Origin: a virus
Lineage: Duplodnaviria > Heunggongvirae > Uroviricota > Caudoviricetes
Length of the DNA stretch: 64,000 nucleotides
Virus record (IMG/VR): IMGVR_UViG_3300031992_000008
Location: 1-64,000 of that record
Strand: one strand, 5' to 3'
Shown here: piece after piece, positions 18,064 through 63,389 of the stretch
Layout: the number at the start of each line of letters is the position of its first letter
Numbering within the stretch: position 1 is the stretch's first letter
Made by a program: the position numbers and the translations under genes
The notes under the pieces: generated by a model
The model's input: only the letters and a program-made list of their open reading frames with translations
Databases searched by the model: none
Told to the model about the DNA's origin: nothing

Positions 18064-18109
18064 AAAAGAAAAAAAAAATAAATGGCCTAGACCGAAGTCT
18101 AGACCATTT
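18064..18109 (-). terminator. strong intrinsic terminator after capsid-like gene (12-bp stem, CGAA/TTCG tetraloop, T10 on minus strand)
   Basis: aaatggcctagac cgaa gtctagaccattt preceded by A13 on plus strand. Confidence 0.75.
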
Positions 18110-18125
18110 AAAGTCTTCACAACAA

Positions 18126-19964: not shown

Positions 19965-20045
19965 TGTTTGTCTTCCTTATTTTTAGGTGAAACAGAGCCA
20001 AAACATAAAGTTATCTTGACTCAGAAACGAAAAAACCTATTTATA

Positions 20046-20057
20046 CTAGGATCCTAG
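20046..20057. repeat. perfect 12-bp palindrome CTAGGATCCTAG in divergent promoter region
   Basis: Between capsid-like (minus) and rusA (plus). Confidence 0.6.
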
Positions 20058-23667: not shown

Positions 23668-23863
23668 AAGCTTCCTTCTCTGTTGGATTTTCAATGATTA
23701 ATGTTCTAGTATCACGATCAATTCTTATATTATATCTAGCGACAAGTTTAATTATATAATCTGATATCAGATTGCCTCTGAGCATATGGCATAACTCAAC
23801 ACGGTCTCTAACTTCTATTTCTTCTGAATCAATCGATGGAGGTGGTATTACTATCGACTGCAT
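23618..23863 (-). CDS. small overlapping ORF (81 aa), doubtful
   Basis: ATG with AGGTAGG SD, but overlaps both paralogue genes. Confidence 0.25.
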   Translation of the reverse strand: MQSIVIPPPSIDSEEIEVRDRVELCHMLRGNLISDYIIKLVARYNIRIDRDTRTLIIENPTEKEAYAIAKGYRTAYSNRVR

Positions 23864-24545: not shown

Positions 24546-24570
24546 AATATCTCCTTTCAAGATATAGTTC

Positions 24571-28891: not shown

Positions 28892-28932
28892 ATCTTCTTA
28901 ACTAATAAATGCACGAAGATAGAGAGGACTAT

Positions 28933-34845: not shown

Positions 34846-34885
34846 AATTAAATTCAGTATACTAATGTATACTGAATTTTTTATT
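34846..34885. terminator. bidirectional terminator
   Basis: aattcagtatac taatg tatactgaatt with flanking A and T runs. Confidence 0.65.
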
Positions 34886-35615
34886 AGTCAATGTCAGGAA
34901 CCAAGGATACTGGCAGAAGATCCGAATCTGTGACGGTATCAGACTTTATGCCAGCACCAATCAAGAATGTATCAAAAGTATTCAATGCAACTTTCTCGAA
35001 CACTGAAGATCCTTCCAAGACATCCTTGAGGTTTACATAACCGTCAGTCTGGATCTTCTCATACATAACTCTCTTGGCACCCATGTTGTCGCTTCGTGCT
35101 CCCATGAGCTCCTGAAGAGTAGCATCGTTCTGCTGAAGGATCAATGCATAGGATTCAACGTCGGAGTTTCTTGCAACCTTAGAATCAGAAGTCACAGTAC
35201 CAGTGAGCTGGTTTCTCTTATCAATGTCAAGGGTCACACCAGACTTATGAGTAACAACTTGTTCAAGTCTCTTGATGGAAAGATACAATACTGGAACTCT
35301 GGTAGCAGTTCTAATGAAGTCTCCATTGCTGTTCTTCTGGTCTCTGTAGTAGACGTATTCCTCCATAGGAATATTTAGAATCTTCAGAGCCTTTTCAATC
35401 TGACCGAAGTCCGGTTCATTCTTGAACGGAAGAACTTCAAGTCTAAAATAAGCGTCCTTATCGGCAAGGAACTTGTTCATCCAAGAATTAAACTGAGCAT
35501 CACTCATTTTATTAAACATGGTTCTATACTTTTCAGTATTCTCACCAGATTTGTCTAGAGTGCTCATCACGCTATAAACAAGGTCTTCTACTTTCTTTCT
35601 TTTTCCAGTACTCAT
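34884..35615 (-). CDS. hypothetical protein (243 aa)
   Basis: AAAGGAG SD before internal ATG 35615; divergent from terminase gene. Confidence 0.6.
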   Translation of the reverse strand: MSTGKRKKVEDLVYSVMSTLDKSGENTEKYRTMFNKMSDAQFNSWMNKFLADKDAYFRLEVLPFKNEPDFGQIEKALKILNIPMEEYVYYRDQKNSNGDFIRTATRVPVLYLSIKRLEQVVTHKSGVTLDIDKRNQLTGTVTSDSKVARNSDVESYALILQQNDATLQELMGARSDNMGAKRVMYEKIQTDGYVNLKDVLEGSSVFEKVALNTFDTFLIGAGIKSDTVTDSDLLPVSLVPDID

Positions 35616-35677
35616 AAGGAAACTCCTTTCTATTATTGAGTTCATAGCCGAACTAGTTATTGAACTAAGGAGCAATT

Positions 35678-37648
35678 ATGAACTTGAAACTTTCCGAAAT
35701 GGTAGCCCGAAAAGTTTCATATCAATTAACTAAAAATACTAGCTTCCTTAAGATACACCAATTCCTTAAGGAAAAAGGAATCAAGAACAATAAGTTCTTT
35801 CTAGCATTATATGATAAAGATCTAGAGAATATAGACCCTAGGGCTGCTAACCTTCCTAAAAAAATTAAAGCTAAGATTATTACAGAATGCAGAGTGAATC
35901 CTTGGTACTTCTTCAGAGAAGTCGTAAGAATCCCTGTGCCGGGTGGTGACATCCCCTACGAACTCCACCGTGGTAACTTAGCTCTGAACTACCTGTCGTT
36001 GAACAATATCGATACCATTGTCTTAATGCCTCGTCAGCATGGTAAGACTATTGGCGCTGTGGTATTGTTCGTATGGCTTTTCTTTTTTGGTACTAAGAAT
36101 ACTACTGTAACCTTTATGAACAAGAAGTATTCTGATGCTCAGGTTAACCTCAAGAGATTCAAGAATATTGTTGAATTGCTACCCAAGTGGATGGTCGAAG
36201 CTAGAAGCCCGAGAGAAGACCAAGAATCTTCTACGACTTTCTCAAGAATGACCAGATTGAAGAATGTTATCACGGCTATGCCAGCTGCTACCTCTCCTGA
36301 AGATGCTGATAAGCTTGGTCGTGGTCTTACGATGCCTTGTTGGTACTTTGACGAAATTGCGTTCGCCAAGTATAATGAAATCATCTATACGGCTGCTGCT
36401 CCGGCTGTGTCTCAGGCTGCTATCGAAGCTGAAAAGACTGGTGTGCCTCACTTCAAGCTGTTCACTACAACGCCTAACTCTATCGACGTAGATGAAGGTG
36501 GATGGTGCAAACATGAAGTCATTGAAGCTGCTTGCGAATTTGATGAAGAGATGTACGATGTTCCTTCCAATCTTCTCAGACAATATGTCTATGATAGATC
36601 CACCAATAACTTTGTGCATATCGAATTTACTTGGAAGGAACTTGGAAGAGATGAGAAGTGGTATGAACAACAGTGTAGAGACCTTCAGTACAATAGACAG
36701 AGAATCAAGCGTGAAGTTGACCTTGAATGGACTCTTTCGGCTGATAAGTCTCCATTCTCTGAAGAAGAACTTGAAAGAGTATCGCATTTCGTTATCCCCA
36801 AGGAAAAGGAATATACCCTTAGAATTGGTGATAGCGGAAACCATAAGCTTACCGTGTTAGAGAATGTAGACTTCTTTAAACCAGTAATACTTGCAGTTGA
36901 CGTTGGCGGTGGACAGGGATCTGACTTCTCTGTTGTCCACATGCTTGATATCGACGATTTCCACGAAATAGGTTATTTTGCTTCTAATAGAATTAACCCA
37001 ATCCCGTTCGCAAGGATTATTATAAGTATAGTGAGGAATCTGTTCTCTAACTCTGTTCTCATAGTGGAAAGAAACAGCTATGGCCTTGATGTCATAACTA
37101 CGCTACTTGAGAATGACTTTACTAGAAACAAGGTATTCTATCGTACTATCAATAATCCGATTCCGAACCAAGGTAACAAGATTCAAAGGGTATATGGTAT
37201 CGATACTACTTCTGGCTCTAGAGATATCATGATCTCTAATTGCTTCATGTATGTAGCTGACGAGCCTCACCTATTTAGATGCAGACATACTTATAATGAA
37301 CTCAAGACTATCGAAAGAAAGAATAACGGCAAGGTAGAACATGCTCAAGGAGCACACGATGACTTCTTGATGTCGTATCTAATCGGTCGTTATGGAGCTT
37401 CATTTGAGAGCTTTAAGATGTTCAAGAGAAGAGTATGTGCTTCGTCTCTTAGGGAACGTAAGGATGTAGCTAGATCGGAAGAGAAAAATACTGTGGTCAT
37501 AGAAACGACTAGAAGTATTGAAGACTACCTTGATAGGGGTGACTCTAAAATGAGGAGAGTCTTTTCTCTCAATTTCGATAATAAGCCGAACTTATCAATG
37601 AAAACTGCAAAACAAGGATTTGACATATGGGGAAATACCAAGACATAG
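35678..37648 (+). CDS. terL: terminase large subunit
   Basis: Walker A LMPRQHGKT, Walker B CWYFDEIAF, RNaseH-like nuclease Asp block AVDVGGGQGSDFSVVHMLD; AAGGAG SD. Confidence 0.85.
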   Translation: MNLKLSEMVARKVSYQLTKNTSFLKIHQFLKEKGIKNNKFFLALYDKDLENIDPRAANLPKKIKAKIITECRVNPWYFFREVVRIPVPGGDIPYELHRGNLALNYLSLNNIDTIVLMPRQHGKTIGAVVLFVWLFFFGTKNTTVTFMNKKYSDAQVNLKRFKNIVELLPKWMVEARSPREDQESSTTFSRMTRLKNVITAMPAATSPEDADKLGRGLTMPCWYFDEIAFAKYNEIIYTAAAPAVSQAAIEAEKTGVPHFKLFTTTPNSIDVDEGGWCKHEVIEAACEFDEEMYDVPSNLLRQYVYDRSTNNFVHIEFTWKELGRDEKWYEQQCRDLQYNRQRIKREVDLEWTLSADKSPFSEEELERVSHFVIPKEKEYTLRIGDSGNHKLTVLENVDFFKPVILAVDVGGGQGSDFSVVHMLDIDDFHEIGYFASNRINPIPFARIIISIVRNLFSNSVLIVERNSYGLDVITTLLENDFTRNKVFYRTINNPIPNQGNKIQRVYGIDTTSGSRDIMISNCFMYVADEPHLFRCRHTYNELKTIERKNNGKVEHAQGAHDDFLMSYLIGRYGASFESFKMFKRRVCASSLRERKDVARSEEKNTVVIETTRSIEDYLDRGDSKMRRVFSLNFDNKPNLSMKTAKQGFDIWGNTKT

Positions 37649-40668: not shown

Positions 40669-43600
40669 ATGGCTGCAGATTCTCTACCGAAATATATGCA
40701 CCCGCATTCGAGTGCACGTATTATCGATAATGCCGTTCTGACTGTCTCGTCTAGCGGCTTGACCAATATGTTCATTGCCCTTGAAGCTGAAAAAGGTATG
40801 CCGAATGAAGCCACCTATATCACTACCCAGAGTGAGTGGATTTTCAACTTTGGCGAACCCAACTACAGCAAGTATGGACAAGGAGCATTGAACGCTCTTA
40901 ACTACATCAACGCAGGTGGTGGTGCATGGGTGATCCGTGTTGTGCCTGATGATGAAAGATTCGCTTCGCTCTCTCTTGGCATCGGCTATCGTGCAAACCA
41001 GCCCTTTACCAATGATGAAGAGAAGTACAGACGTCTTGAAATGACTTCTGAACAGATTAAGTTGTGGAATGCTGCCCAGACTGATGATACCCTCAAGTAT
41101 GCAATCGATAAGAAGTCTGGCAACTTTGCTATTCTTCCGTTGTTCTACATCGAAGAAAATGGCAACATCAACGCTGCTTTGAAGCTCCAGACTCTTGACG
41201 AAATTGAATCTTACAAGCTCAAGAACACTGATGCTAGCAAGACCATCAATGCCGTTGCTAAGAAGAATGTGATTACCTATTCTAATCCGTTCATCGAAGT
41301 CTCCGGTGTCTTTGATCCTGAAAACGAAGAACTGAGATTCCTCGCAGACAGAGCTTATACCGAATTCGTTGAAGGTCAGGAAATCGGTGGTATTGAATTC
41401 GGCAATGTTGCTGAAGAAAACTGCAAGGCCTATATCCGTATCGATAAGTACTTTGCTACTGATGCAAATGATGACACGATCAAGGATAAGACTGGCAGTG
41501 TCAAGACTTTTGACTACTATGATGCCGCTTACAAGGCTGCTCAGTCCAGCAATCAGAATGCTGAAGAAAGCGATGGTTCTGGTGAATTCGATCCGGCTGA
41601 TCATGTGTTTGCGTTCTCTGGTACGATCCGTATCTATTCCGAAGCTGCCGATGGACAGCCGTTTGGCGAAGTGATCTATGATGTGCTCGCAGCTATTTTC
41701 GGTACCGATGCACAGACCGTAACAAAGGGTAAGGCAGAATTCAATACTGAACTCAATGGCGACGCTAGCTTCTCTGATGATATTCAGAAGGGTAAGAAGC
41801 ATACTGCTAAGTGGCTTCAGGAAAACCGTAATGAATACTCCAACGCTAGAACTGTCTACAAGAAAGTCAAGCCTAGCGAATTCTTCGGTAGCGCCAATAC
41901 GATCGTTAATACCAAGATTCTTCTGAATATTGGTACTCCCGATTCTCAGACTTGGGATTACTCCTTCGAAGTTTACAAGGAAAGTCTGCCCGGTCAGTAC
42001 ATTCCTGTCGCATCTTCTCTCATTGACAACAGCACTGCCTTTACGGAAGTAGAGCTCACTGAATGGAATGCCCTGCATGGTACATTCTATAAGCTCGGCG
42101 GTAAGGCTGATCCTGAAAGCGATTTTGAAGATGTCGTTGACAGCACTCAGCAGAAGATTGTTAACAAAGAACCGTCTACGGGTGCTACCAAGAACTCCAC
42201 GCTTTACTATGTGAAGTATGTGACGACTGGTGAACCTGTCTACTCGACCTCTATTACTGAATCTGAAGCTTACAGATTCAACAGAGTTAAGGCTACATCT
42301 GAAGATGAAACCGTGACCTTGTCTACTCCGGCTGAATTCCCGGCTTCTGCTATGAACACCAAGTATGCAAGCCTCTTGAATACTAAGGTGTCCTTCAGCT
42401 CCGATGTTTCTAAGGAAGGTCACTGGGAAGCTACTGTTCCTGAAGGCGCTACCCTGACGGATGCAGTTGACTTCATCAACTTCTTCTTCAGCGCTCCTTC
42501 GATGATTGAAACTAAGGACAACTCTAACGCTGGTGAATTCCTCGTTAACGTTTCCTTCAGCGAAAATGCTTACATCGGTGAAAGCGAATATGTGTCTATC
42601 AAGGGTACTGCTCTTGGAAACCTCTTCAAGCGTGCTGACGATGGTGCTATTCAGGACAATAACAATGAAAATGTGACGGATGATACCAATGAAGGTATCT
42701 CTGGTACTTCTACTGGCGAATCTGACGAACCGAAGTACATTCTTCGTACTGACATCAAGCCGTCCGAAGTTCCTAGCACTGTTGCTAAGTTCATTGTCAA
42801 CGGTAGCTTCCAGCCTGTCGAAATCGACAACATTCCGGCATCTGCTCTTCTCTGCTTGCTTGCTGATAAGACCAACAGAGAAAATGGTACTGCTGAACTC
42901 AAGACCGATCTTGGCGAAAATTTCGAATTCGAATATGCCAATACTTGTGTCTTGCTGGCTGGAATCGATTCTGTTGCTGGTTTCAATGGCACGATTACGC
43001 TTGCTTTTGTTTCTGACTCTATCGAAAACTTGGCTATCAAGGCTTATGACGAAGCTGTTAGCGGTGGTGAAACCTCCATTACGGCTACTCAGATCCCCGG
43101 TGAAAAGGTTCCGTACGTCAGATACTCTGACAACTTTGATGGTTCTATCTTTGAACCTAACTATGACTACATTGAACGTATCTATGATACCGTTGGTCTC
43201 GTGACTACGACTTACACGGCCTTCGATTATCCTGAAAATGCCAACTACTTCCCGTACAATATCCAAGATGGTGTAAAGGTGAAGACCCCGGAAATCTGGG
43301 CTGGCATTGAAAGTGCTAAGGAAGGCTACTCTGTCGCTGCTGCTAGAGACGAAATCAAGGATGTTGATCTTCAGGATCTCAAGCTCGATAAGACTTGCTT
43401 TGCTGAATTCTGCCGCTTCTTGCCCAAGGGCTCTGGTAAGTGGTACAACAGACTCGGTGTGTCGCTCTCCTACGATGACAACTTCGACGGTACCTATCCT
43501 GATTGGAGTATGTTCAAGCTCACTGTGTTCGAAAGAAGTAACGGTGAAGAGATCTCTCGTGAACAGTTCGCTGTCTCGTTGGATCCTGATGCTGTGTCCG

Positions 43601-44937
43601 CTACTAAGGAAAGTCTCTTCATTGAAGACGTCGTTAACACCTACTCGTCTTACCTGACTTGTGTGGTGAACTATGATAACCTCCGCAACTTCATTGAAAC
43701 GAAGTTTGCTGTGGTTGACGACAACAACAAGCCCGTCAAGGATGAAGATGACAATGAAATCTTCGTTAGCGTTGATACCGTCATCAAGTACATCTTCGGA
43801 CGCATCGATCTCGATGATTTCAATAAGAGAACGTTCGGCGATGACTATCAGGTTAACACCCTCAGCAAGTATGCATTTACTTCGTTGATGAGCGTTAACG
43901 GCGTGGATGAAGATGGCTGTGCCTTCGACACCTCTCGCTACAACAGTGATAGTCTCTATGAATACACTGAACCCTTCAATTCGTTCTGGTTCTTCACGAC
44001 TGTTTCCTCTGCTGCTTCGCTCTACTTGGGCGGTGGCTCCTATGGTAACGGTTGGGGCTATGAATACGAAGACGAAGAGGGTAATCCGCAGCATACTAGC
44101 ACGCTGACTCAGGCTCTCGTAAGAGCATACAGTGGTGTAACTGATCCGTTCATCACTAACACGAACCTCTGTGAATTCGACCTCATGTTCGATGCTAACT
44201 ACGAAACTGACGTTCGTACTGCTATGACGAAGCTGGCCTCTGAAACTCGTCAGGACTGTATCGCACTCCTTGACCAAGGCTTGTCTATCGCCAATGCTAC
44301 ACAGGCTATCGATAAGAGAAAGAACGAAGAAAACTTCGACACCTTCTATGCTTCCATCTTTACGCAGCATCTTGTTGTGAACGATGTGTGGTCTGGTAAG
44401 GTCATCAAGGTTACTCCGACATTCTTCCTTGCTTCGAAGATTCCTGCTAACGATACTGCTAACGGCAAGACTATGAACTTCGTTGGCCCCCGTCGTGGTA
44501 CTATCGGTGGATTCCGTTCTATTTCGTTCATGCCTACAGCTTACGAAATGAGCGAACTCTACAAGGCTCAGGTGAACTACATCGAACGTGACGCTCTTGG
44601 TGTGTTCTTTGCTACTGAACTCACGTCTCAGACTAAGAATACTCCGTTGACCCTTATCCATGCTGTTCGCGCTATCTTGGCTCTGAAGAGAGACTTCCTC
44701 AAGATCAGCCGTAACTACCGTAGCGAATATGCTACTGGTGCTGTTCAGGCTAACTTGCTGGGCGAACTCAACGCTTGTGCTGCCGAATACATCCTTCAGG
44801 GTGCGTTCAAGTACATCACGCCTAAGATTGCCTCTACGGACTACGATGTCCAGCAGAGAATCTGCCGCATTGATGTGTCTGTGGCCTTCGTTGACATCAT
44901 GGAAAGATTCGTCTTCTCCTTCGTTGTTGAACGCTAA
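40669..44937 (+). CDS. giant acidic virion structural protein (1422 aa), likely tail-associated
   Basis: Strong AAGGAGG SD; class-2 promoter element upstream; terminator downstream; followed by baseplate spike gene. Confidence 0.8.
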   Translation: MAADSLPKYMHPHSSARIIDNAVLTVSSSGLTNMFIALEAEKGMPNEATYITTQSEWIFNFGEPNYSKYGQGALNALNYINAGGGAWVIRVVPDDERFASLSLGIGYRANQPFTNDEEKYRRLEMTSEQIKLWNAAQTDDTLKYAIDKKSGNFAILPLFYIEENGNINAALKLQTLDEIESYKLKNTDASKTINAVAKKNVITYSNPFIEVSGVFDPENEELRFLADRAYTEFVEGQEIGGIEFGNVAEENCKAYIRIDKYFATDANDDTIKDKTGSVKTFDYYDAAYKAAQSSNQNAEESDGSGEFDPADHVFAFSGTIRIYSEAADGQPFGEVIYDVLAAIFGTDAQTVTKGKAEFNTELNGDASFSDDIQKGKKHTAKWLQENRNEYSNARTVYKKVKPSEFFGSANTIVNTKILLNIGTPDSQTWDYSFEVYKESLPGQYIPVASSLIDNSTAFTEVELTEWNALHGTFYKLGGKADPESDFEDVVDSTQQKIVNKEPSTGATKNSTLYYVKYVTTGEPVYSTSITESEAYRFNRVKATSEDETVTLSTPAEFPASAMNTKYASLLNTKVSFSSDVSKEGHWEATVPEGATLTDAVDFINFFFSAPSMIETKDNSNAGEFLVNVSFSENAYIGESEYVSIKGTALGNLFKRADDGAIQDNNNENVTDDTNEGISGTSTGESDEPKYILRTDIKPSEVPSTVAKFIVNGSFQPVEIDNIPASALLCLLADKTNRENGTAELKTDLGENFEFEYANTCVLLAGIDSVAGFNGTITLAFVSDSIENLAIKAYDEAVSGGETSITATQIPGEKVPYVRYSDNFDGSIFEPNYDYIERIYDTVGLVTTTYTAFDYPENANYFPYNIQDGVKVKTPEIWAGIESAKEGYSVAAARDEIKDVDLQDLKLDKTCFAEFCRFLPKGSGKWYNRLGVSLSYDDNFDGTYPDWSMFKLTVFERSNGEEISREQFAVSLDPDAVSATKESLFIEDVVNTYSSYLTCVVNYDNLRNFIETKFAVVDDNNKPVKDEDDNEIFVSVDTVIKYIFGRIDLDDFNKRTFGDDYQVNTLSKYAFTSLMSVNGVDEDGCAFDTSRYNSDSLYEYTEPFNSFWFFTTVSSAASLYLGGGSYGNGWGYEYEDEEGNPQHTSTLTQALVRAYSGVTDPFITNTNLCEFDLMFDANYETDVRTAMTKLASETRQDCIALLDQGLSIANATQAIDKRKNEENFDTFYASIFTQHLVVNDVWSGKVIKVTPTFFLASKIPANDTANGKTMNFVGPRRGTIGGFRSISFMPTAYEMSELYKAQVNYIERDALGVFFATELTSQTKNTPLTLIHAVRAILALKRDFLKISRNYRSEYATGAVQANLLGELNACAAEYILQGAFKYITPKIASTDYDVQQRICRIDVSVAFVDIMERFVFSFVVER

Positions 44938-49284: not shown

Positions 49285-50451
49285 TTATGCTTTTCCTCCC
49301 CAGCTGGACGGAATATTATCCAAGGCAGTCTCATCTTGCTTAATACCGCAAAGTCTGAATGTACTATCGTGGGACGCTTTTCCGTAGGTTTCGATATAAC
49401 CATTCAGTAATTCATAGGTACTCTCAATAGAAGCCTTTGAGACATTGCAGCAGCCTCTAAAGGCATTACTAGAGATTGCAGAATTGTTTGCAGTAATTTT
49501 AGGAAGCTTTGTCAGAGAAGTCATCGTGTAGAAAGTATTAATAAGCGAAGGCTGAGCTCCGGAATTAATGATAATATCTCCAATTTCTGTAATATGGAAT
49601 AGTCTATTAAAAGCATAGGTGAAGGAATATGCTTTTGTAGTAATGCTCGGAAGCTTTCCATATACAGGAATATCATACCAGAGATTAGTTCCAATGAAAC
49701 CATCAAGCACAGTAGCTTCTTTCAGATTCCAATCTACAATTTCGACTTTTCCGGTATACTCGATATTAGAAGGAAGACCATATCCGGCTGCTCTCCAAGA
49801 CGCTGCTTCATTATAAATATTCTCTCCTTCAGTTATCTTCAGATCTTCAGGCATTGTCTGATCAAAGTTTTCATCGATAAACAGCGAAGAACCAAGTCCA
49901 TCAAAGCTTCCATAGCCAAATGCTGCTCTAAGGCTTGTTCCCTCTGTCACGCCCCAAAGCCAGATATTATCCTCTTCATTGATAAGCTGCCAGTCGGCTG
50001 CAAATTCCTTTTTCCTTTCATTAGTACCATAATCGTCATCTCTGGTACAAGCCGTTCCAGTAGCAAGCTGGTGATCGATAGGATTATAGCTCTTGTTCAA
50101 GAACTTAATCTTTACCCAAATATCTCTAGGTTCCGGTTCTGGTTCAGGAGGTACAGGAGGCTCCGGTGGTACAGGAGGAACTGGTTTAGGATCTTCGCTA
50201 CTATCTCCAGAATCACTTGAATCATCTGGCTTAAGGTCAGACCCAATAACGGCAGCAAAAGTCTCCTGATTAAATACCTCGATTTTTTCACCATCAATCT
50301 TTGCAGATACGATTGTATCATATTTAAGATTGAAACTTTTTCTATCTTTAGTGAATACAACAATGCTATCTTCCAAGACAGAAATACTCTTGGAGTTTAC
50401 TGCAACAGCAAAGTTTCTTCCATTTTCTTTCCAGTTAAAATTGAAAAGCAT
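49285..50451 (-). CDS. protein with N-terminal duplicated domain, Pro-rich linker and C-terminal BspA-type leucine-rich repeats (LRR_5-like)
   Basis: GAGG SD before ATG 50451; PVPPVPPEPPVPPEPEPEP linker; repeats such as ISSNAFRGCCNVSKASI and YSFTYAFNRLFHITEI fit the BspA LRR pattern. Confidence 0.6.
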   Translation of the reverse strand: MLFNFNWKENGRNFAVAVNSKSISVLEDSIVVFTKDRKSFNLKYDTIVSAKIDGEKIEVFNQETFAAVIGSDLKPDDSSDSGDSSEDPKPVPPVPPEPPVPPEPEPEPRDIWVKIKFLNKSYNPIDHQLATGTACTRDDDYGTNERKKEFAADWQLINEEDNIWLWGVTEGTSLRAAFGYGSFDGLGSSLFIDENFDQTMPEDLKITEGENIYNEAASWRAAGYGLPSNIEYTGKVEIVDWNLKEATVLDGFIGTNLWYDIPVYGKLPSITTKAYSFTYAFNRLFHITEIGDIIINSGAQPSLINTFYTMTSLTKLPKITANNSAISSNAFRGCCNVSKASIESTYELLNGYIETYGKASHDSTFRLCGIKQDETALDNIPSSWGGKA

Positions 50452-50540
50452 GATACGCCTCATTGATATATTTATTAGGAGTTGACTAGGTAAGCAACTT
50501 CATAAAGTAGAACTTAGTTACTTTTCTAGTTGTATTACAG

Positions 50541-50568
50541 AAGAAAAAAAGAAGCCAAAGGCTTCTTT
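50541..50568 (-). terminator. intrinsic terminator (minus strand)
   Basis: aagaagcc aaa ggcttctt with T-run on minus strand. Confidence 0.55.
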
Positions 50569-50960
50569 TATTTTAATGGGATTACTTTATCAAGATCGCC
50601 CAGAATTATTTCGGTATTAGAACCGGAATTATACCAAGAGCTCAGTTGAACATTTTCTTCGCCGAAGCGTTCGGCGAGCCAGTTGTATAATACTTTCGCT
50701 GTATTACAATGAACTCCGGATATTTCGATGATCCCTTCGTCACTATCAACCACTTCATGGTAGACGCTAGCCATGTGTTTATTGTAGTTCTTGGGGAATA
50801 CGAACTTTACCTTTGTCACTGTCTTTGCGAGAAGAATTCCAACGATATCTTCAAGAATCTCAGTTTCATTGTCTTCAAGCCATTCGGAAAGTCTTTCTCT
50901 CTCCTCATCGGCAAGTTCCTTGAATCTTTCAGCGATGTATTTCTTGCAGTCTTTTGTCAT
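50568..50960 (-). CDS. hypothetical protein (130 aa), early-type promoter on minus strand
   Basis: AAAGGAG SD; upstream (minus) ATATTAAATAGTG..AACTTAAC box. Confidence 0.6.
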   Translation of the reverse strand: MTKDCKKYIAERFKELADEERERLSEWLEDNETEILEDIVGILLAKTVTKVKFVFPKNYNKHMASVYHEVVDSDEGIIEISGVHCNTAKVLYNWLAERFGEENVQLSSWYNSGSNTEIILGDLDKVIPLK

Positions 50961-51791: not shown

Positions 51792-51796
51792 AACAA

Positions 51797-51840
51797 TAAA
51801 TCTCTCTTTTTGAGAGATTTATTTTTTTTTTTATTTTTAT
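51797..51840 (+). terminator. intrinsic terminator with long T-tract
   Basis: aaatctctc ttttt gagagattt then T11. Confidence 0.7.
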
Positions 51841-51907
51841 ACCTAGAAAAAAAAATAAAATTCTGTATCAATAAATATTGGTAACTAATTATTGCAAGGA
51901 GTTTATT

Positions 51908-53350
51908 ATGAAACTAATAGTAGAACCATTCAGACTGATTCTCAGAGATGCCAACGAAAGACTGTTGAAATTTCTAAGATCCAAGCTGGCCATTTATGAT
52001 AACTACTGCAAATGGCCTAAGATTCTTTGGACTGCCATTCTAGAAAGAACTAATGGCGACCTTTTGCTCCCTAGATTTATTCCTAGAAAATATATCTTCG
52101 GCGATAATCTCATTGTAGAGAGAAACAACGAAACGGAATACGCAGAAGATGTTATCCGTATTAACATGGATGCTAGCCCTAAGAATGATCTCCAGAGAGA
52201 CGCATTGGCTTATCTATTCGATGATCTCAACAGATTCAGAGAGAATGTCAGGGTTCTAGACTTACCTACAGGAGCTGGAAAGACTTTCTTAGCTTTGTGT
52301 GCTATTTCTAGGCTCGGAGTGAAGGCCTGTATTTTCGTTCATAAGATCACTATGATTGAAACTCCTTGGATTAAAGATATCTTGAACTTTACCGATATCA
52401 GACGAGATGAAATCTGTGTAATTCAGGGTTCAGATAGTATCAAGAGAGCATACAAAAACAAGGATAAATACAAGATCTTTATATGTGTACACAAGACTTT
52501 TGAAACCATTGCCATGAAGAGCGATGGTGAGGAAGTCATTAGAACAATGTATAAAAATCTTGGAATCGGACTGAACATCATTGATGAAGCCCATAGAGAA
52601 TTACTCGACGTGTTCTATATCAACATGTTCTCTCCGTGTAAAAGAGCTCTCTATCTTACTGCTACACTTGGGCGTGTGGACTATAAGGAAAATGAAATCT
52701 TTAGATACATCGTTCCTGTCACTGACACGTTTAGAAGCAATGTATATATTGCCGATAACAAAATCATAACATACTGTCCTAGACCTTTTAGTACCACAGT
52801 CGATGAAGTTTGGGAAAAGAAGTTCCATAACATAGTCGGTATCAAGCTATCTGTATACTGTGATTATATCATGGCTAACGAAGATATTCGTTGTATGCTC
52901 TACGATGGCATCAAAACCGCTATAGATGAAATCCTAAAGGTCAATCCAGAAGGACAGATAACTATTCTTCTTGGAACACTCGAACTCGTACAATGGATCT
53001 ATGATGGTCTAGCTATAGATTATCCTGAGATTGAAATCGGGAACTTCACTTCCTTGATAGCTCCTAAGAAGCGCATCAATGAACTTAATAAGAAGATCAT
53101 TCTATCTACAGAAAAGTCTATGGACAGCGCAACCGACTGCAACGTTGATAATCTCATTATGACTGTTCCAGTAACGAATGATATTCAGCTGACACAGATT
53201 ATTGGTCGTATCAGAAACAAGGATAATCATCCTGCTCCATACTTTGTTTATGATATCTTTGATACATCTTTGCCTAAAATGTTAAAGAACTTCAATACTC
53301 GAAAGAAGATTATCACTGAGCATTTGGCTAAAGAAGTAAAGAAGGCATAG
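51908..53350 (+). CDS. SF2 DEAH-box helicase
   Basis: Motif I LPTGAGKT, motif II IIDEAHREL, motif VI QIIGRIRN; AAGGAG SD before ATG 51908. Confidence 0.75.
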   Translation: MKLIVEPFRLILRDANERLLKFLRSKLAIYDNYCKWPKILWTAILERTNGDLLLPRFIPRKYIFGDNLIVERNNETEYAEDVIRINMDASPKNDLQRDALAYLFDDLNRFRENVRVLDLPTGAGKTFLALCAISRLGVKACIFVHKITMIETPWIKDILNFTDIRRDEICVIQGSDSIKRAYKNKDKYKIFICVHKTFETIAMKSDGEEVIRTMYKNLGIGLNIIDEAHRELLDVFYINMFSPCKRALYLTATLGRVDYKENEIFRYIVPVTDTFRSNVYIADNKIITYCPRPFSTTVDEVWEKKFHNIVGIKLSVYCDYIMANEDIRCMLYDGIKTAIDEILKVNPEGQITILLGTLELVQWIYDGLAIDYPEIEIGNFTSLIAPKKRINELNKKIILSTEKSMDSATDCNVDNLIMTVPVTNDIQLTQIIGRIRNKDNHPAPYFVYDIFDTSLPKMLKNFNTRKKIITEHLAKEVKKA

Positions 53351-53384: not shown

Positions 53385-54032
53385 ATGGCTGTTGTATCAC
53401 TTGCCAAGAATGCGAAGAAAGCTTTTGAAGCTGTCTATAAACTGGTCAATGCCTTCTATGAGAAACCGAAGTCTATCTCTATGGAAGGACAATACGCCCA
53501 GTGCAACTTCTGTGGAACTAGAGGGATCAGGGAAATATTCGTTGCGAACTCTTCCAATGAAATTTTCCTTCCCGGATTTCCCAATTTCAGCATAGACATG
53601 GATTTGCTTGCTGAATTAAAGAAACCTAAGATCCTAGTTGACATTAAGGATGGCGACAATTGTGTGAATATAACAAAGCTTGCAACAGAGAAGATACCGG
53701 AAGAAAAGGTAACTCTGTACGAACATGACTGGAAGAGAAAAGAGAATCCGTTTGACTTACTTGATAGTCTTGAATGGGTGGAACTAGAGCTACCCGCATC
53801 TTTTGAAGTAGTGAAATACAACTTTGAGACTGGTAATGTGGCATTACCCGGTGCAGAGGATACTAATGGCGCTGTTCTGTATATCGACAGTAAGATAATG
53901 CCAAAAGACAAGATGAGAGGTACCTGTTATCTCGCTATTGAAGCATATGAAGAAAACTTCATTTATCCTGTCATTTACTGTGAAGGCGAAAACTTCAAAA
54001 TCCTTATTAGGTATATGAAGATTCTTAGCTAG
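53385..54032 (+). CDS. hypothetical protein (215 aa)
   Basis: AAAGGAG SD. Confidence 0.6.
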   Translation: MAVVSLAKNAKKAFEAVYKLVNAFYEKPKSISMEGQYAQCNFCGTRGIREIFVANSSNEIFLPGFPNFSIDMDLLAELKKPKILVDIKDGDNCVNITKLATEKIPEEKVTLYEHDWKRKENPFDLLDSLEWVELELPASFEVVKYNFETGNVALPGAEDTNGAVLYIDSKIMPKDKMRGTCYLAIEAYEENFIYPVIYCEGENFKILIRYMKILS

Positions 54033-54059
54033 AACTAAACAATGAAATGAGAGGATATT

Positions 54060-55082
54060 ATGGCAAATAAGCTTAACAATGCATTCGAAGTCATCAATGC
54101 AATCTATGACGATCTTAGAGAAGCTACTAGAGGACAAGAAGCAGAAGTCGATGATACTATCAAAGAGATGAAGAAAAGTCTCAATGATAAGAGAGAAAAA
54201 TTCGAGAGATTCTTTAATTGGGAGAATGTTACCTTCAAACCATTTGAGGAGCTCGATAAAACAGACTCTGATACAATAATGCGCAATGCTATCTCTAATA
54301 GCGAAAAAGTTGCAAGATACAAAGCTATCGGGAAATACATTGAAAGTGATTTTGCCGGAAGTTCTCTAACCGTTGCGTTGGAAACATTCTCTAATCTGTT
54401 CTTGAGCATCGTTTCAGACTCCGCTTCTGATACTGTACTTGAGTTCTACAATAGCGAATATTATTCGACCTCTATTGGAATTCTGAAGACTACAGCAAGA
54501 GGTTTGCCATTACTTATTCCTGACCCAAGAAAGCCTCATAATGAGCTTATTAGACATTTTGACAGAACTACAATGCTTGGTCTAATTGCTAGAAATGCGA
54601 TCCGAGGCGGATTCATCTATGATGCTTCCTGTTTGTACAGGATTATTGCAATCGCTGCAATGCTATCACAGCTGAATAAGCAAATCAAAGAAGAAGAACG
54701 CGAAATAGATACTCTCGATCTGAAAACAGTACTGAATAATAGGGCATTCTTCGAATCACACTTCAAGCAATATTTCACTGAAGGATATCGCGATGCCTTC
54801 ATCAGCGGTGCTGATAACCAAAATATCAAGAATTTTAAAATTGAAACGCTTAACTCTCTAACATCGTTGGCGCAAGCTTTTGCCACATTAACGGTCGTAG
54901 ACTTTTCATTCTTCTATCCGTTTATAGTGACAAGATATATCGTTAATGCTAAAGATCCAATTACAGCAGGAGCAAATGAGTTCGACAGTGATCTCTTTAG
55001 TCTCAAAACGTTTACGGATTCTTCCATAGCTCTTTACGAAGAAATCTTAGCTTACAACGATTACATCATAAACAATGCATAG
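54060..55082 (+). CDS. hypothetical protein (340 aa)
   Basis: GAGAGGA SD. Confidence 0.6.
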   Translation: MANKLNNAFEVINAIYDDLREATRGQEAEVDDTIKEMKKSLNDKREKFERFFNWENVTFKPFEELDKTDSDTIMRNAISNSEKVARYKAIGKYIESDFAGSSLTVALETFSNLFLSIVSDSASDTVLEFYNSEYYSTSIGILKTTARGLPLLIPDPRKPHNELIRHFDRTTMLGLIARNAIRGGFIYDASCLYRIIAIAAMLSQLNKQIKEEEREIDTLDLKTVLNNRAFFESHFKQYFTEGYRDAFISGADNQNIKNFKIETLNSLTSLAQAFATLTVVDFSFFYPFIVTRYIVNAKDPITAGANEFDSDLFSLKTFTDSSIALYEEILAYNDYIINNA

Positions 55083-55091
55083 GAGAAAACT

Positions 55092-55334
55092 ATGTCGATT
55101 TTTGATAAGGCCACCATTGAATGTGGCTTTAGGAACGAAGAGTATCACAAGGCTCTGCCTGAGAGAATCTTCACAAACAAAGAAAGAAACAAGTATATTT
55201 TCGATGAGAAGCATACAGACCTCTATGAAGCTCTTGTAGCTCTTATGTCTGCCTTCCGTGCTGATAACTTGAAGGAAGTTGCTAAGTGTCAGCGTGAATT
55301 CGAAATTCTCTATTGTTACTACGAGGACTATTAA
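55092..55334 (+). CDS. hypothetical protein (80 aa)
   Basis: AGGAGAAA SD. Confidence 0.5.
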   Translation: MSIFDKATIECGFRNEEYHKALPERIFTNKERNKYIFDEKHTDLYEALVALMSAFRADNLKEVAKCQREFEILYCYYEDY

Positions 55335-56248
55335 TGGGTATCTTTACAAAACGCGAATATCTCTGTGATGGAATTGGCTTCATTACGAGACTAAGACTAT
55401 TCGGCAAGCGCTATGGTATGTACAGGCTTCTTGTCGCCAGAAAAGACTTGCCTGAAGAGGATCTGAAAGACCTTATCTCTATGGGTGTAGTAGATGCAGA
55501 TAGGGCTAAATACTTCTCTATCATGGGCGATAAGGGTCTCTTCAAGAATCGCATTTCTATCATCGACTATTACGATGAAAGAATGAGGCTCTTTGCTTCT
55601 GTTTCCAGCAAAGCTGGCAGCCGTACCATCAAGTACTATGAGTTCGATGAAGGTGGAGCAGTGCGTCGTGGTTGCAACACGATCACCTACGAAGGGAATG
55701 GTCATAAGGGCGAATACCGCTACATTAGCAAGCGTGTTAACACCTTTACTACAGACCAAGATCCGATTCTAAACATCATGTGTTCTAAGTCTTTCTACAC
55801 GAATGACAATAATGATGACAATAGTATCATCTCTATCGAGCGCATTATGAACTATAATGTCGTCGATCCGGAGTCCAGACCTAAGGCTGACCTGCTCAAA
55901 ATTGCTTTCAAGAGTGGCAGGGTGAATAACATCGTTGTGAATAATCAGAATGATGACATTCTTATGGCTGAAACAGAACTCCCTACTGGCAAAAAGATTT
56001 ACATCTATAAGAATATCACTCAGGTATATATGAGCCACTTTTCTGACTCTATTGATGGTGATGAAAAGAAACTTACAGAATGTATCGATTATGTCATCGA
56101 TGTGGATACGCCGACAAGCAAAATGCGAAACATCTCTAATGGTGCAGAGTTCGATTTCGACAGTTCACTGTTGGAGCTTCTCTTCAAGGAAGTGGCAGAA
56201 GCCAAATACCCCGAAGAGTTCATCACAAAAGTTATAACAAAACTCTAA
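55334..56248 (+). CDS. hypothetical protein (304 aa)
   Basis: GAGGA SD; TAATG overlap. Confidence 0.6.
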   Translation: MGIFTKREYLCDGIGFITRLRLFGKRYGMYRLLVARKDLPEEDLKDLISMGVVDADRAKYFSIMGDKGLFKNRISIIDYYDERMRLFASVSSKAGSRTIKYYEFDEGGAVRRGCNTITYEGNGHKGEYRYISKRVNTFTTDQDPILNIMCSKSFYTNDNNDDNSIISIERIMNYNVVDPESRPKADLLKIAFKSGRVNNIVVNNQNDDILMAETELPTGKKIYIYKNITQVYMSHFSDSIDGDEKKLTECIDYVIDVDTPTSKMRNISNGAEFDFDSSLLELLFKEVAEAKYPEEFITKVITKL

Positions 56249-56256
56249 TATATTAA

Positions 56257-56298
56257 TAGGAGAATCTTGGAAAGTTTCTGGGATTCTCCTATTTTAAC
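56257..56298 (+). terminator. stem-loop upstream of RNAP beta fragment (terminator or attenuator)
   Basis: taggagaatc ...16 nt... gattctccta then TTTTAACC; weak T-run. Confidence 0.35.
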
Positions 56299-56311
56299 CA
56301 AAGGAAGATAC

Positions 56312-58204
56312 ATGCCTGACCATTCAGCTATGGAAAGTGAGCTACTTGTTCCGAATGCGAACAAGATTGATGGGCCAAGATTAAATATGGTGTGTAACCA
56401 TTTGAATCAGGCTCTTGTATTAGACGACCCGGAACCACCTCTGTTGTTCACCAACTTTGAAAATCAGGTTGGAGAAGTTTCTTCAAGCATTCTAACTTAT
56501 GACAATGACCAAAAGCTCTTGAAGAAAATCAAAAAGAATGAATCGACCTATGCCATCATCATGGAAGATACGAAGACTGGTAAGATCGATTTTAAAGAAA
56601 TTGCAGCATCAAAGAGACTGACTGAACACTACGGTTATCTTAACCGTATTCCTGACTATGATGCTCTTGACGAAGGCATGACTATCGGTGCTGGAGAAGT
56701 TATTTCTTCTGCATCATCTTATGATGACGAACTGAACCTTGGATTTGGAAAGAACCTTAAGACCATCTTCTATAACCATAAGGATGGTACGATTGAAGAT
56801 GCAATTGTAATCTCTCAATCTGCTGCCGAAAAGATGAAGTTCACGGAAATTTCCGAGTATGGAATTCTTATCAACAGCAATGATGTTCTGTTGAATTTGT
56901 ATGGAGACGTTGGTAATTATCAGTGCCTTCCGTCGATTTATCAGGAAATCAGTAATGGTATCATTTGTGCTAGAAGACGTTATGAGAAGAGATCTTCGTT
57001 TGCAAGATTTACGGATTCCACGGCAAGAAAGATCATTGCATCGGATGCCGTATTCAGTGGTAATGGTTATGTCGAAGACATCACTATTTATGCTAACGTA
57101 AACGCAGATGCTCTGAATGAACCTTGGAGTGCACAGATCAAGGACATTTTGGAAAACCAAGAACGCTACTGGCTCGAAATCATCGAAGCCTTGTGGCCTT
57201 ATAAAGATACTGGAAGACTGACTCCGGATGCATCTTATGCTCTGGCTAGGTATTCCGAAAGTGTCAAGGGGCCTCATAGTGAAAAGAAGCCTTGGATTGC
57301 CAAGAATGAATTTGACTTCCTGTATATCGTTGTCAAGGTATGCCATCAGAGACCGCTTGAAGTCGGCTGTAAGATTACTAACAGGTATGGCTCTAAGGGT
57401 GTGATTTCTAAGATCCTGCCCGATAATGAAATGCCTGAAACAGAAGACGGGGATCATGCAGAAGTCTGTATGTCACCGTTGGGTATCATCGGTCGATTGA
57501 ATCCGGGAGCTTTGTTTGAGCTTGCGATTAATGAGATTGCAGACAATTTCAGAAAGCGTGGAGCTAACTTGGATCTTGATGGCAAGATCAATATGATGTA
57601 CGAATGCTACAAGAGCTTAAATTACGACCAATACTTCAATGTAAAGGAATTTGTCGATAGCTTGAGTAGGGAAGAGCAGGAAGAGTTCATCAATGAGATG
57701 TATGATAGGGGCTTCCCGATTCATATGCCTCCATTCTTCAATAACATCAGTTTTGAAGAGTATGCAGAAATCATTGATACCTACGACATCAAGCAGACGA
57801 AGTTCAAGGGAATTGACAAGCCGTTGACATTTGCGAAAGCGTACTTCATGAGACTTAAACAAGAACCATCCGGCAAGCAATCGGCAAGATGCGTCGGTCT
57901 GCTGAGTTCTAAGGGTGTTCCGAACAAGAGTAAGAGTGCGAAGAGCACTGATATTCTGAGTAAGACTCCGATCAGACTTGGCGAACAAGAAACGTCTAAC
58001 CTGATGTTCTCTGGAAACATTTCCGATATCTTTGACCTGCTGTCATTCAATTCACAATCTGCTGAAGACAGACTTGAGTTGGCTACAGCATTGATCAATA
58101 AGAAGGAAGGCGAAGAGATCAAGCTTGAACGGAAAGGCAATAATGTTCCAAAGAGTATGCTTTCGGGCTATCTCTCTGGGCTTGGACTGAAAATCGAGAA
58201 ATGA
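56312..58204 (+). CDS. multisubunit RNA polymerase beta subunit, C-terminal fragment (split rpoB-like)
   Basis: NRYGSKGVISKILPDNEMPETEDGDHAEVCMSPLGIIGRLNPGALFE matches bacterial RpoB GRHGNKGVISKI.P.EDMP..DGTPVDIVLNPLGVPSRMN.GQ; C-terminal PIRLGEQE...LSGLGLKIE matches GGQRFGEME...LKSLGINIEL; AAGGAAG SD. Confidence 0.8.
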   Translation: MPDHSAMESELLVPNANKIDGPRLNMVCNHLNQALVLDDPEPPLLFTNFENQVGEVSSSILTYDNDQKLLKKIKKNESTYAIIMEDTKTGKIDFKEIAASKRLTEHYGYLNRIPDYDALDEGMTIGAGEVISSASSYDDELNLGFGKNLKTIFYNHKDGTIEDAIVISQSAAEKMKFTEISEYGILINSNDVLLNLYGDVGNYQCLPSIYQEISNGIICARRRYEKRSSFARFTDSTARKIIASDAVFSGNGYVEDITIYANVNADALNEPWSAQIKDILENQERYWLEIIEALWPYKDTGRLTPDASYALARYSESVKGPHSEKKPWIAKNEFDFLYIVVKVCHQRPLEVGCKITNRYGSKGVISKILPDNEMPETEDGDHAEVCMSPLGIIGRLNPGALFELAINEIADNFRKRGANLDLDGKINMMYECYKSLNYDQYFNVKEFVDSLSREEQEEFINEMYDRGFPIHMPPFFNNISFEEYAEIIDTYDIKQTKFKGIDKPLTFAKAYFMRLKQEPSGKQSARCVGLLSSKGVPNKSKSAKSTDILSKTPIRLGEQETSNLMFSGNISDIFDLLSFNSQSAEDRLELATALINKKEGEEIKLERKGNNVPKSMLSGYLSGLGLKIEK

Positions 58205-58836
58205 CGGAATTAAATATCGATATAGGCACCAAAGGAATAGCAGCTGTTGTACACTCTACAACAGCTTCTTTAACATTTGTAAATTTCAAAGAAAAGAAGT
58301 GGGTAACGACTTGGCCCACGATAGAAGACAGACTCCTTCTGGACATGTGTGACTACAAGGTCATTGATGATCCGATCGCTGATGCGATTATGCGTATCAA
58401 CAGTCTTGAAGACACCTCAACTACCTGCTGTTGTGCTGGGCATACGGACTACCCTCAAGGTGGTTACATATGGTTTAATACCGTGTCGACTCAGCTAGTA
58501 ACAATCATGGATAGTCTCAAGTACTGGAAAAAGGACGGTATCGACATTTACAGAATCAGGAATGTTGGCAAAGATTTGTCTTTATGGTTTGAAGCCTTAA
58601 AGGAATTGTATAATGCCTTTAAGGATTATCCCAATAAATTCGAACAGTGCCATGTCCTTAATACTGGAGAGACCACTAGGATTGTGTCTCACAAACTTTT
58701 CAAAGATATCGAAGAGATTGATGAGTCTCTTGACGTACCTTTCTATGCAGTGGACAGGAACACCCTGACCTTCGAACAGAGAGAGGTACTCAAGTTGTAT
58801 GACGAATCTCTCCCTTCTGTTACTGTTGAAAAGTAG
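58201..58836 (+). CDS. hypothetical protein (211 aa) translationally coupled to the RNAP fragment
   Basis: ATGA overlap; contains CCCAGH; terminator downstream. Confidence 0.6.
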   Translation: MTELNIDIGTKGIAAVVHSTTASLTFVNFKEKKWVTTWPTIEDRLLLDMCDYKVIDDPIADAIMRINSLEDTSTTCCCAGHTDYPQGGYIWFNTVSTQLVTIMDSLKYWKKDGIDIYRIRNVGKDLSLWFEALKELYNAFKDYPNKFEQCHVLNTGETTRIVSHKLFKDIEEIDESLDVPFYAVDRNTLTFEQREVLKLYDESLPSVTVEK

Positions 58837-58847: not shown

Positions 58848-58884
58848 GCCCGTTGCATTACTGCATTGGGCGATTCTTTTTTTT
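58848..58884 (+). terminator. intrinsic terminator
   Basis: gcccgttgca ttac tgcattgggcg then ATTCTTTTTTTT. Confidence 0.55.
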
Positions 58885-59874: not shown

Positions 59875-60015
59875 GGCTATTCTAATGATTCCGCTATCCA
59901 TATTCGCTATGCTAGTGATTTATGGAAGCCACAAATAGAACTTATAGAAATGGTGAGAGCCATTTCTATATTTATTCATCAGAAACTACTAATTGAAAAA
60001 TGAAAAGGAGAGTTT

Positions 60016-60780
60016 ATGCCCTCGGTATTCTTAGCTCAAAATTTCGAAGCGAGATCTAATCCTTCGATTATTCGTGAAACAGACGATGATGTGACCTTCA
60101 GATGTATTTTGCAAGACGGTGACACTCTCAATAGAAATAGAAAGATCTATCCTACTGAAATGATTGAAGCTGCCTTGCAGGATCCTCTACTTCAGGAAGC
60201 TATGCAGTGCGGTACTCTGTATGGTGAGGCAGGTCATCCTTTCGATACCAACATTAAAAGACAGCTGTACATCGACTACGGTAATGTTTCTCATGCTATC
60301 AATAAGATTGATAGAAAGACTAACAAGTTCTATGGCGATGTGACTACTACTGCCAATAATCAAGGTTCTTGGATGAAGAAAGAAGTTGATAAGGGTAAAG
60401 TCTTGTCGTTCTCTATGCGTGGTCTACACAAGCTAAAACAGGAAGGTGATCACTTCCGTGTTGTGAACCTTAAGATCGCTACTTATGACTGGGTTCCCGT
60501 ACCATCTCATGCAGTAGCCAGAATGTGTTCTGCTAGAGAATCTGTAGAAGCTTTTGCAAAGCTGGATGAACATCCGGTTTCTGACGAAGCTTTGAAGGAA
60601 GTTCTGGCTTCTGAAGGTATTAATTCCTTGTTTGCCATTGAAGACATGCTCGATAGCGAAGTAAAGTCTGCTACCGTTGAGAACAAGGTTCTTAAGGTGC
60701 ATGGTAATTCCGGGATTATGTCGTTCAGCAATCTCCGTTCTAAGACCCTTTCGATTCTTGATGACGTCCTTGGAGGTTAA
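60016..60780 (+). CDS. prohead maturation protease, HK97-type (S78-like)
   Basis: LYGEAGHPFD (His), KVLSFSMRGL (Ser) and DWVPVPSHAVARM resemble HK97 gp4 MLWQHD.., ALSGLSIGF, VSPVTFPANDAARV; AAGGAG SD. Confidence 0.5.
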   Translation: MPSVFLAQNFEARSNPSIIRETDDDVTFRCILQDGDTLNRNRKIYPTEMIEAALQDPLLQEAMQCGTLYGEAGHPFDTNIKRQLYIDYGNVSHAINKIDRKTNKFYGDVTTTANNQGSWMKKEVDKGKVLSFSMRGLHKLKQEGDHFRVVNLKIATYDWVPVPSHAVARMCSARESVEAFAKLDEHPVSDEALKEVLASEGINSLFAIEDMLDSEVKSATVENKVLKVHGNSGIMSFSNLRSKTLSILDDVLGG

Positions 60781-61912: not shown

Positions 61913-61985
61913 AATAATTAACGCAAAAGATAGTACTGAATAAGAAAAAATTAAAGAAGATGGTTTGCCAGACCATCTTCTATTT

Positions 61986-63351: not shown

Positions 63352-63389
63352 TACGAAAAAAAAGAAAGAATGGCATGAAGCCATTCTTA
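63352..63389 (-). terminator. intrinsic terminator (minus strand)
   Basis: aagaatggc atga gccattctt with T-run on minus strand. Confidence 0.6.

Follow-up and report, generated by a model that had tools for sequence, protein, structure and literature searches.

A probable gene for the C-terminal β polypeptide of a non-virion RNA polymerase from an uncultured phage related to AR9 and phiR1-37

Phages of the AR9 and phiKZ types encode multisubunit RNA polymerases with split β subunits, and the kind of gene treated here, its split site and its role have already been described, together with crystal and cryogenic electron microscopy structures (PMC9209446, PMC8287921, PMC7598289). The non-virion RNA polymerase (nvRNAP) of phiKZ is built from five subunits and has neither α nor ω (PMC8287921). 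The β subunits of the nvRNAP and of the virion RNA polymerase (vRNAP) are split at different positions, that of the vRNAP leaving most of the chain in the N-terminal piece and a short C-terminal piece, and in Bacillus jumbo phages an HD domain is fused to the latter (PMC7598289). Here we analyse a stretch of 64,000 nucleotides (the window), positions 1 to 64,000 of IMG/VR record IMGVR_UViG_3300031992_000008, which is assigned to the Caudoviricetes. The open reading frame (ORF) at 56312..58204 (+) very probably encodes the C-terminal β polypeptide of an nvRNAP, in an uncultured and probably jumbo-sized myovirus that is a distant relative of AR9/PBS1 and phiR1-37.

The 630-residue β polypeptide

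The ORF has its likely start at an ATG at 56312, ends with a stop codon at 58202-58204, and specifies a protein of 630 amino acids that extends from β region E to the C terminus. A Shine-Dalgarno sequence, AAGGAAG (56301..56307, +), can be read 4 nt 5′ of the ATG. We rejected a TTG start at 56267 that would give a longer product, and which lies inside the hairpin discussed below; five relatives of 630-633 amino acids match the length given by the ATG.

An earlier note on this DNA, made before any database search, had proposed that the ORF encodes the C-terminal fragment of an RpoB-like β subunit from a phage polymerase of the AR9/phiKZ type. This proposal is borne out by domain, family and structure searches, and neither of the two findings that the note had named as refuting it, a full-length rpoB or the lack of any RNA polymerase profile match, was made. 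The Pfam model RNA_pol_Rpb2_6 (PF00562) matches the protein well above threshold (63.8 bits, cut-off 23.4, E 2e-17), and PHROG 3295 ('RNA polymerase beta subunit') matches it over its whole length (E 9e-96). In a sequence search of the PDB, the closest solved structure is chain C of the AR9 nvRNAP (7S00_C, and likewise 7S01, 7UM0 and 7UM1; E 3e-113), where residues 4-598 of the query align with residues 16-616 of the chain at about 36% identity. The phiKZ nvRNAP chain 7OGP_C is matched over residues 129-415 (E 9e-11).

Alignment with a bacterial β subunit of 1269 residues begins at bacterial residue 618, within the conserved 'LIPFLEHDDANRALMG' segment (region E), which is paired with residue 2 of the query, and takes in the 'FEDAIVIS' and 'GRHGNKG' motifs. 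The phage segments IEDAIVIS (region F), NRYGSKGVISKI (region H) and RLGEQE (region I) align with bacterial and AR9 chains alike. Both peptide strings that the earlier note had singled out are present in the translation, including the RLGEQE motif that it had placed in the C-terminal region. Across 28 aligned homologues the N terminus falls at the same point, and E162/D163, K354, R358, G360, K362, G363, R395, N397 and G557 are invariant. The sequence suggests no sign of an inactive copy.

By analogy with AR9 and phiKZ, the protein would supply the β side of the active centre through the 'ED' of region F, 'GSKGVISK' of region H and 'RLGEQE' of region I, and flap and clamp parts would also come from it. 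It would join a separate N-terminal β polypeptide, two β′ pieces and a sigma-like fifth subunit, and the assembled polymerase, with no α and no ω, would be responsible for transcription of the late and perhaps also the middle genes of the phage.

When 50,697 phage records were searched by tblastn, the best protein matches came from AR9/PBS1 (36-37% identity over 94% of the query), and phiR1-37 g261 is 35% identical over 90% of the query. Identity is about 31% for the Staphylococcus S6-like phages and about 22% for the phiKZ-like phages. We regard the gene as the orthologue of AR9 gp089, phiR1-37 g261 and phiKZ gp71-73 in a divergent uncultured lineage.

Bacterial β chains are also matched in the PDB, with E-values of 1e-17 to 1e-10, as might be expected if the ORF were bacterial rpoB DNA from the host or a contaminant, a pseudogene in truncated form or an artefact of chimeric assembly. 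These matches, however, span 66-200 residues around region H only, compared with 595 residues for the AR9 phage chain. There is no full-length rpoB, the 64 kb around the gene is phage DNA, and two independent assemblies contain the protein in identical form. Relatives of 69-87% identity with the same neighbouring genes are found in other samples and have been recovered repeatedly on viral contigs. The probability that the ORF is bacterial or chimeric is practically nil, and we treat it as a phage gene. The earlier note had gone further and taken split β subunits to be specific to jumbo phages, which is too broad, because rpoB is split in some archaea as well. The archaeal split site is not the same as those of the phages (PMC7598289).

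Two polymerases and their partner subunits

Every ORF of the window was compared with the whole AR9 genome by tblastn. The 630-residue product matches only the nvRNAP gene for the C-terminal β polypeptide (E 2e-114), and gives no alignment with the AR9 vRNAP β gene even at E ≤ 5. The AR9 record annotates the matched gene as 'non-virion RNAP subunit, beta subunit C-terminus' (RefSeq BI022_gp088). The structural papers number it gp089 (PMC9209446).

The window contains a second β fragment, which the earlier note had overlooked. This is the short C-terminal β piece of the vRNAP at 34884..35615 (-), which encodes 243 amino acids from a likely ATG start at 35615 (full ORF 34884..35675) and is divergent from the terminase gene. 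The product is 51% identical to the C-terminal RNA polymerase part of AR9 gp077, across the three exons of that gene, and matches PHROG 3233 ('RNA polymerase beta subunit') with E 3e-42. Unlike its AR9 counterpart it is free-standing, with neither the HD phosphohydrolase domain nor the introns of gp077, and all 13 homologues found are 237-255 amino acids long. A profile of this family aligns with residues 422-629 of the 630-residue protein (hhalign probability 86%, E 5.5e-6), pairing RNSDVE with RLGEQE and the C-terminal GAGIKSD with GLGLKIE, and the 243-residue protein is a paralogue of residues ~422-629 of the larger one. Since 34884..35615 is of the vRNAP type and 56312..58204 of the nvRNAP type, the window carries the C-terminal β pieces of both polymerases.

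It could still be argued that ORF 56312..58204 is itself a vRNAP β fragment, packaged and injected for the transcription of early genes, given that both enzymes of these phages have a split β and that virion genes lie 2-4 kb from it (prohead protease at 60016 and a structural protein at 61190). Against this stand the tblastn result, which couples a strong match to the nvRNAP gene with none to the vRNAP β gene, and the position of the split, which lies elsewhere in vRNAP β. In addition, the short vRNAP piece is present separately at 34884..35615, and an early-promoter-like motif lies 5′ of ORF 56312..58204. We consider a virion role for this ORF very unlikely and retain its assignment to the nvRNAP.

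The earlier note had sought the remaining β and β′ fragments either outside the window or among the unassigned ORFs at 53385..56248 and 58201..58836. The latter part of this suggestion does not stand, as the four ORFs in 53385-56248 and ORF 58201-58836 show no similarity to RNA polymerase in Pfam, in PHROGs or by tblastn against the AR9 genome, and 54060-55082, 55334-56248 and 58201-58836 show none in PDB sequence searches. The former part holds for the C-terminal β′ piece of the nvRNAP. On ENA contig ERZ27257202 k141_5880544, on which 9.3 kb past the window end was read, a gene for 607 amino acids lies at window-equivalent 69214-71037 (+), the counterpart of 2245-4068 (-) in locus L013. It is outside the window, ~5 kb past its end and ~11 kb 3′ of the C-terminal β gene. 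Its product is 30% identical to the C-terminal β′ subunit of the AR9 nvRNAP (E 2e-53) and matches PHROG 3015 (E 1e-55). Genes of both the virion and the non-virion enzyme have thus been found, namely those for the C-terminal β and C-terminal β′ pieces of the nvRNAP and for the C-terminal β piece of the vRNAP.

A C-terminal β protein of 82% identity occurs on two IMG/VR contigs, of 242,489 bp (IMGVR_UViG_3300028887_000068) and 178,986 bp. The longer of these carries, in order, the nvRNAP β′ C-terminal gene, SbcD, a DnaB-like helicase, a structural gene, a homologue of the vRNAP β′ N-terminal subunit (509 amino acids, 37% identity to the AR9 subunit, E 3e-64), DNA polymerase and UvsX. A two-step walk along it did not reveal an N-terminal β gene. 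A search with the AR9 N-terminal β sequence returned 120 matches, among which clustering did not pick out a candidate for the phage's own N-terminal β, and two motif alignments made in search of it yielded 14 and 80 loci, none of them on the two contigs with the 82%-identical protein. From its family relationships, the phage would be expected to possess a complete nvRNAP.

The lack of RNA polymerase similarity upstream, together with homologues that start at the same point, argues that the gene is truly split. It might instead be an exon-like piece of a β gene interrupted by a mobile intron or homing endonuclease, with the N-terminal half just upstream; in AR9 and its relatives, RNA polymerase genes do harbour group I introns that contain HNH genes, and the homologous gene in phage Internexus appears as two pieces. 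However, the four ORFs at 53385-56248 resemble neither RNA polymerase, nor intron endonucleases, nor AR9 (two were also searched against the PDB). The gene also has its own Shine-Dalgarno sequence and ATG, its start position is that of AR9 gp089 and 27 other homologues, and in AR9 the N-terminal β gene is itself 8 kb from the C-terminal one. An interrupted gene is therefore extremely improbable, and a gene that is genuinely split remains our reading.

Among relatives of the DNA polymerase gene at window 28909-30843, one is apparently split by an inserted HNH/AP2 endonuclease (L016, 13654-17735), and the gene is intact in another (L017, 14972-16885) and in the window. This suggests that mobile introns or endonucleases are present in the lineage, as they are in AR9.

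Promoter-like motif, leader hairpin and coupled gene

AR9 early promoters, which are read by the vRNAP, have the consensus AAATATATATTAT-N6-G(+1) (PMC5312081), which was also extracted in this analysis, and ATATATTAT is common to the phiR1-37 early promoters. Upstream of the C-terminal β gene, a promoter-like motif, TATATTAA, at 56249..56256 (+) corresponds to this AR9/phiR1-37 early promoter core and putatively shares its function. It overlaps the end of the stop codon of the upstream gene and lies directly 5′ of a hairpin, and its counterparts in relatives are TATAATAA, CATATTAA, GTATATTAG or TATATTAC.

The sequence GTATATTAW is present 7 times in the window against 1.3 expected, with 6 of the 7 copies 24-45 nt 5′ of gene starts. 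The composite TATATTAW-N8-38-TTAACC is present 4 times against 0.02 expected, the copy 5′ of the gene at 56312 included. Sites of the form (G)TATATTAW lie 24-60 nt 5′ of gene starts at 146, 2517, 3091, 8263, 8804, 53353 and 56249 (+) and at 51002 and 63332 (-), and are often followed by a CTTAACCA element just 5′ of the Shine-Dalgarno sequence. Beyond the window, the 607-residue β′ gene is preceded by a small gene of 127 amino acids, which has its own terminator and, 5′ of it, the same GTATATTAA as a promoter-like site. A TACCTAG motif found 5′ of some genes was discarded as not significant (8 matches against 4.5 expected).

The predicted core (G)TATATTAW is common to the window, AR9 and phiR1-37 despite deep divergence, and both nvRNAP genes are likely to be early genes under a vRNAP promoter with a core conserved across the phage group. 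As in AR9, the injected virion polymerase would then use TATATTAA as an early promoter. If the spacing is that of AR9, transcription would begin at about 56262-56263, within the 5′ arm of the hairpin.

This stem-loop (56255..56293, +) lies 3′ of the promoter-like motif and 5′ of the Shine-Dalgarno sequence, where the earlier note had already seen a hairpin. Its arms, at 56255-56273 and 56275-56293, are 19 nt each, and its predicted fold energy is -22.8 kcal/mol (z -2.97). Six distinct relatives also have a hairpin in this position, and in those with 69% and 42% identity the stem sequence is wholly different and the stem is nevertheless retained. In the four closest relatives, the proportion of paired cells is 94%, compared with 43-63% for slid partners, and two pairs are altered on both sides, a compensatory change. 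A shuffle control, in which 43 of 500 shuffles reach the observed score, is not decisive with four related sequences. Searching the hairpin region against Rfam returned no family, with only a sub-threshold microRNA match.

A transcript beginning at about 56262-56263 would open with an 11-bp 5′-terminal hairpin. Read-through transcripts from the upstream operon, for which a promoter-like site is seen at 53353, would contain the entire hairpin and, after it, a U-rich tail (UAUUUUAA), and could end at this point. The hairpin could be a stabilising 5′ leader, a terminator of the upstream operon, or both.

The gene forms a stand-alone unit that consists of TATATTAA, the stem-loop, the Shine-Dalgarno sequence, the gene itself, an optional coupled accessory gene and a terminator-like hairpin. 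The last of these, a hairpin with a T-run at 58848..58884, closes the transcription unit between convergent genes; it was read from the sequence and was not reported by an automatic scan. A perfect terminator equivalent lies directly 3′ of the β gene in relative L011. Terminator-like sites number 24 between 50 and 64 kb, where 9.3 would be expected. Strong intergenic hairpins with T-runs are located at 50547-50569, 51795-51823, 59943-59970, 61955-61981 and 63366-63388, several of them reported on both strands.

The coupled gene, at 58201..58836 (+), encodes 211 amino acids and overlaps the β gene stop through an ATGA, in agreement with the earlier note. The further suggestion of a dedicated operon of RNA polymerase subunits finds no support, because the gene is absent from L011, a relative with 87% identity. 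Its length also varies, with 219 amino acids in the 81%-identical relative (L010) and 182 in three others, L018 and L020 among them. The protein belongs to a rare CCSGH family, with 19 relatives among 1.84 billion representatives, which shares the motif 'ID.AIA..IMRLNS..G..T..CCSGH'; T..C.GH is invariant (consensus T..CCSGH). Comparison with the 'TTSSCSGR' segment of TYW3/Taw3 showed a faint resemblance, with sub-threshold scores only. The gene is an accessory passenger and not a polymerase subunit.

Several observations weigh against this reading of the gene and its leader. The protein has no Pfam match to Rpb2_7 (PF04560) at E ≤ 0.1, a profile that the earlier note had named as a check; the corresponding region can be aligned with AR9 chain C and with the vRNAP C-terminal β family, and Rpb2 domain 7 is too diverged for the Pfam model. 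Neither the N-terminal β, nor the N-terminal β′ of the nvRNAP, nor a gp226/gp68-like subunit was located for this phage, of whose genome ~84 kb was read, or for its close relatives. TATATTAW alone is not over-represented, with ~19 copies against ~18 expected by our own composition estimate, and the TATATTAA copy 5′ of the gene at 56312 has no preceding G, which most other copies have. The U-tract that follows the hairpin is weak in L010 and absent in L019.

The known cultured members of the AR9/phiR1-37 radiation (PBS1/AR9, phiR1-37 and S6) all carry deoxyuridine DNA. The window clade lies inside this radiation and so may be a uracil-DNA lineage as well; uracil DNA in the window phage is a reasonable possibility. 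Deoxyuridine DNA has been described for the nearest cultured relatives, and the uracil-sensing residues are in gp226 and the N-terminal β, not in the C-terminal β polypeptide (PMC9209446). The AR9 late-promoter consensus AACA-N6-TA/G is not enriched 5′ of window genes: there are 3 matches in 21 upstream regions of 110 nt, compared with ~1.7 expected by chance on our own estimate, and none 5′ of the capsid, sheath or protease gene. A broader proposal, which we advance tentatively and think somewhat unlikely, is that the clade is an uncultured uracil-DNA jumbo lineage with a different late-promoter code, since this motif is not seen, in which the promoter-hairpin module is a dedicated control element for the nvRNAP. 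If so, the module might restart transcription inside a terminator, giving a 5′-capped hairpin messenger RNA, and so govern when, or in what amount, the late polymerase is made.

Lineage and comparison with known systems

The window is judged to be phage DNA from its capsid, terminase, sheath, protease and DNA polymerase genes, which have AR9 homologues at 25-50% identity. The major head protein (18126-19964, -) is 29% identical to the AR9 head protein and matches PHROG 20655 (E 2e-91); a 791-residue ORF on the opposite strand (17682-20057, +), in the most GC-rich stretch (0.49), was rejected as a shadow ORF over this gene. Other genes with AR9 homologues encode the exonuclease half of a split family-B DNA polymerase (28909-30843), the terminase large subunit (35678-37648), a superfamily II helicase (51878-53350) and the prohead protease (60016-60780), as well as RusA and a baseplate wedge protein in the window and SbcC just outside it; SbcC and SbcD are among the phage context genes. 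The tail sheath (40669-44937, +) has 1422 amino acids, compared with 987 in AR9, and only its N- and C-terminal parts align with the AR9 protein. It carries a large central insertion relative to AR9, and a 1436-residue antisense shadow ORF overlies the gene.

Two adjacent paralogues, at 22864-23694 (-) and 23829-24560 (-) (PHROG 12252), are homologous to two AR9 genes at ~207 kb and ~219 kb. A 531-residue SPFH/Band-7 and flotillin-like protein is encoded at 15152-16747 (+), and AR9 too encodes an SPFH-domain lipoprotein. At 49285-50463 (-) lies a gene for 392 amino acids with a proline-rich linker and a weak match to BspA-type leucine-rich repeats (E 0.006); the product is a candidate receptor-binding protein and may be a clue to the host.

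A nucleotide search of 50-64 kb against the 50,697 phage records gave no match. A neighbour-joining tree, which is rough and has no support values, places the window clade within the AR9/phiR1-37 radiation as the sister of phiR1-37, with the phiKZ-like phages as the outgroup. The clade has been recovered from metagenomes only, and one of its record names points to an animal-gut sample. The exact 630-residue protein occurs on ENA contig ERZ27257202 k141_5880544 (172,004 bp) and on a Logan contig. A neighbouring protein recurs in identical form on a contig of the 0.2-1 Mb class, and the 82%-identical relative is on the 242,489-bp contig. The sole difference between the window and the ENA contig is a 5-base indel (four T and one A) near 51821-51846, a region of homopolymer runs in the terminator/promoter region 5′ of the helicase gene. 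The left edge of the window is on a separate 4.6-kb contig in the ENA sample, from which it follows that the window derives from a different and longer assembly of this phage.

The gene marks this phage as the carrier of a two-polymerase transcription system of its own, independent of the host RNA polymerase. A divergent lineage, at ~35% identity to any cultured phage, thereby joins a small family of polymerases without α and ω, of which the AR9 enzyme reads promoters on the template strand of uracil DNA. What is gained is the correct annotation of two RNA polymerase genes in the window, a predicted early-promoter core and a conserved leader hairpin that can be tested.

Among described systems, phiKZ gp71-73 (7OGP chain C) is the same kind of polypeptide as the 630-residue protein, but the phiKZ-like phages are far more distant. 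In phiR1-37, the promoter before g245 ('RNA polymerase') is directly followed by an annotated stem-loop, as in the window. By contrast, phiR1-37 g261 has a terminator and then a promoter upstream, whereas in the window the hairpin follows the promoter-like motif; the host and the remaining gene order also differ. The likeness to AR9/PBS1 gp089 extends to the split point at β region E, the length (630 versus 665 amino acids), the active-site motifs and the arrangement as a stand-alone gene with a small downstream ORF that overlaps its stop. Nucleotide similarity to the AR9 gene is absent, and no promoter or hairpin lies directly upstream of gp089, the P087 promoter being 1.1 kb away. The overlapping ORF in AR9 encodes 61 amino acids and is unrelated to the 211-residue protein of the window. 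The early-promoter core ATATATTA is common to the window and AR9.

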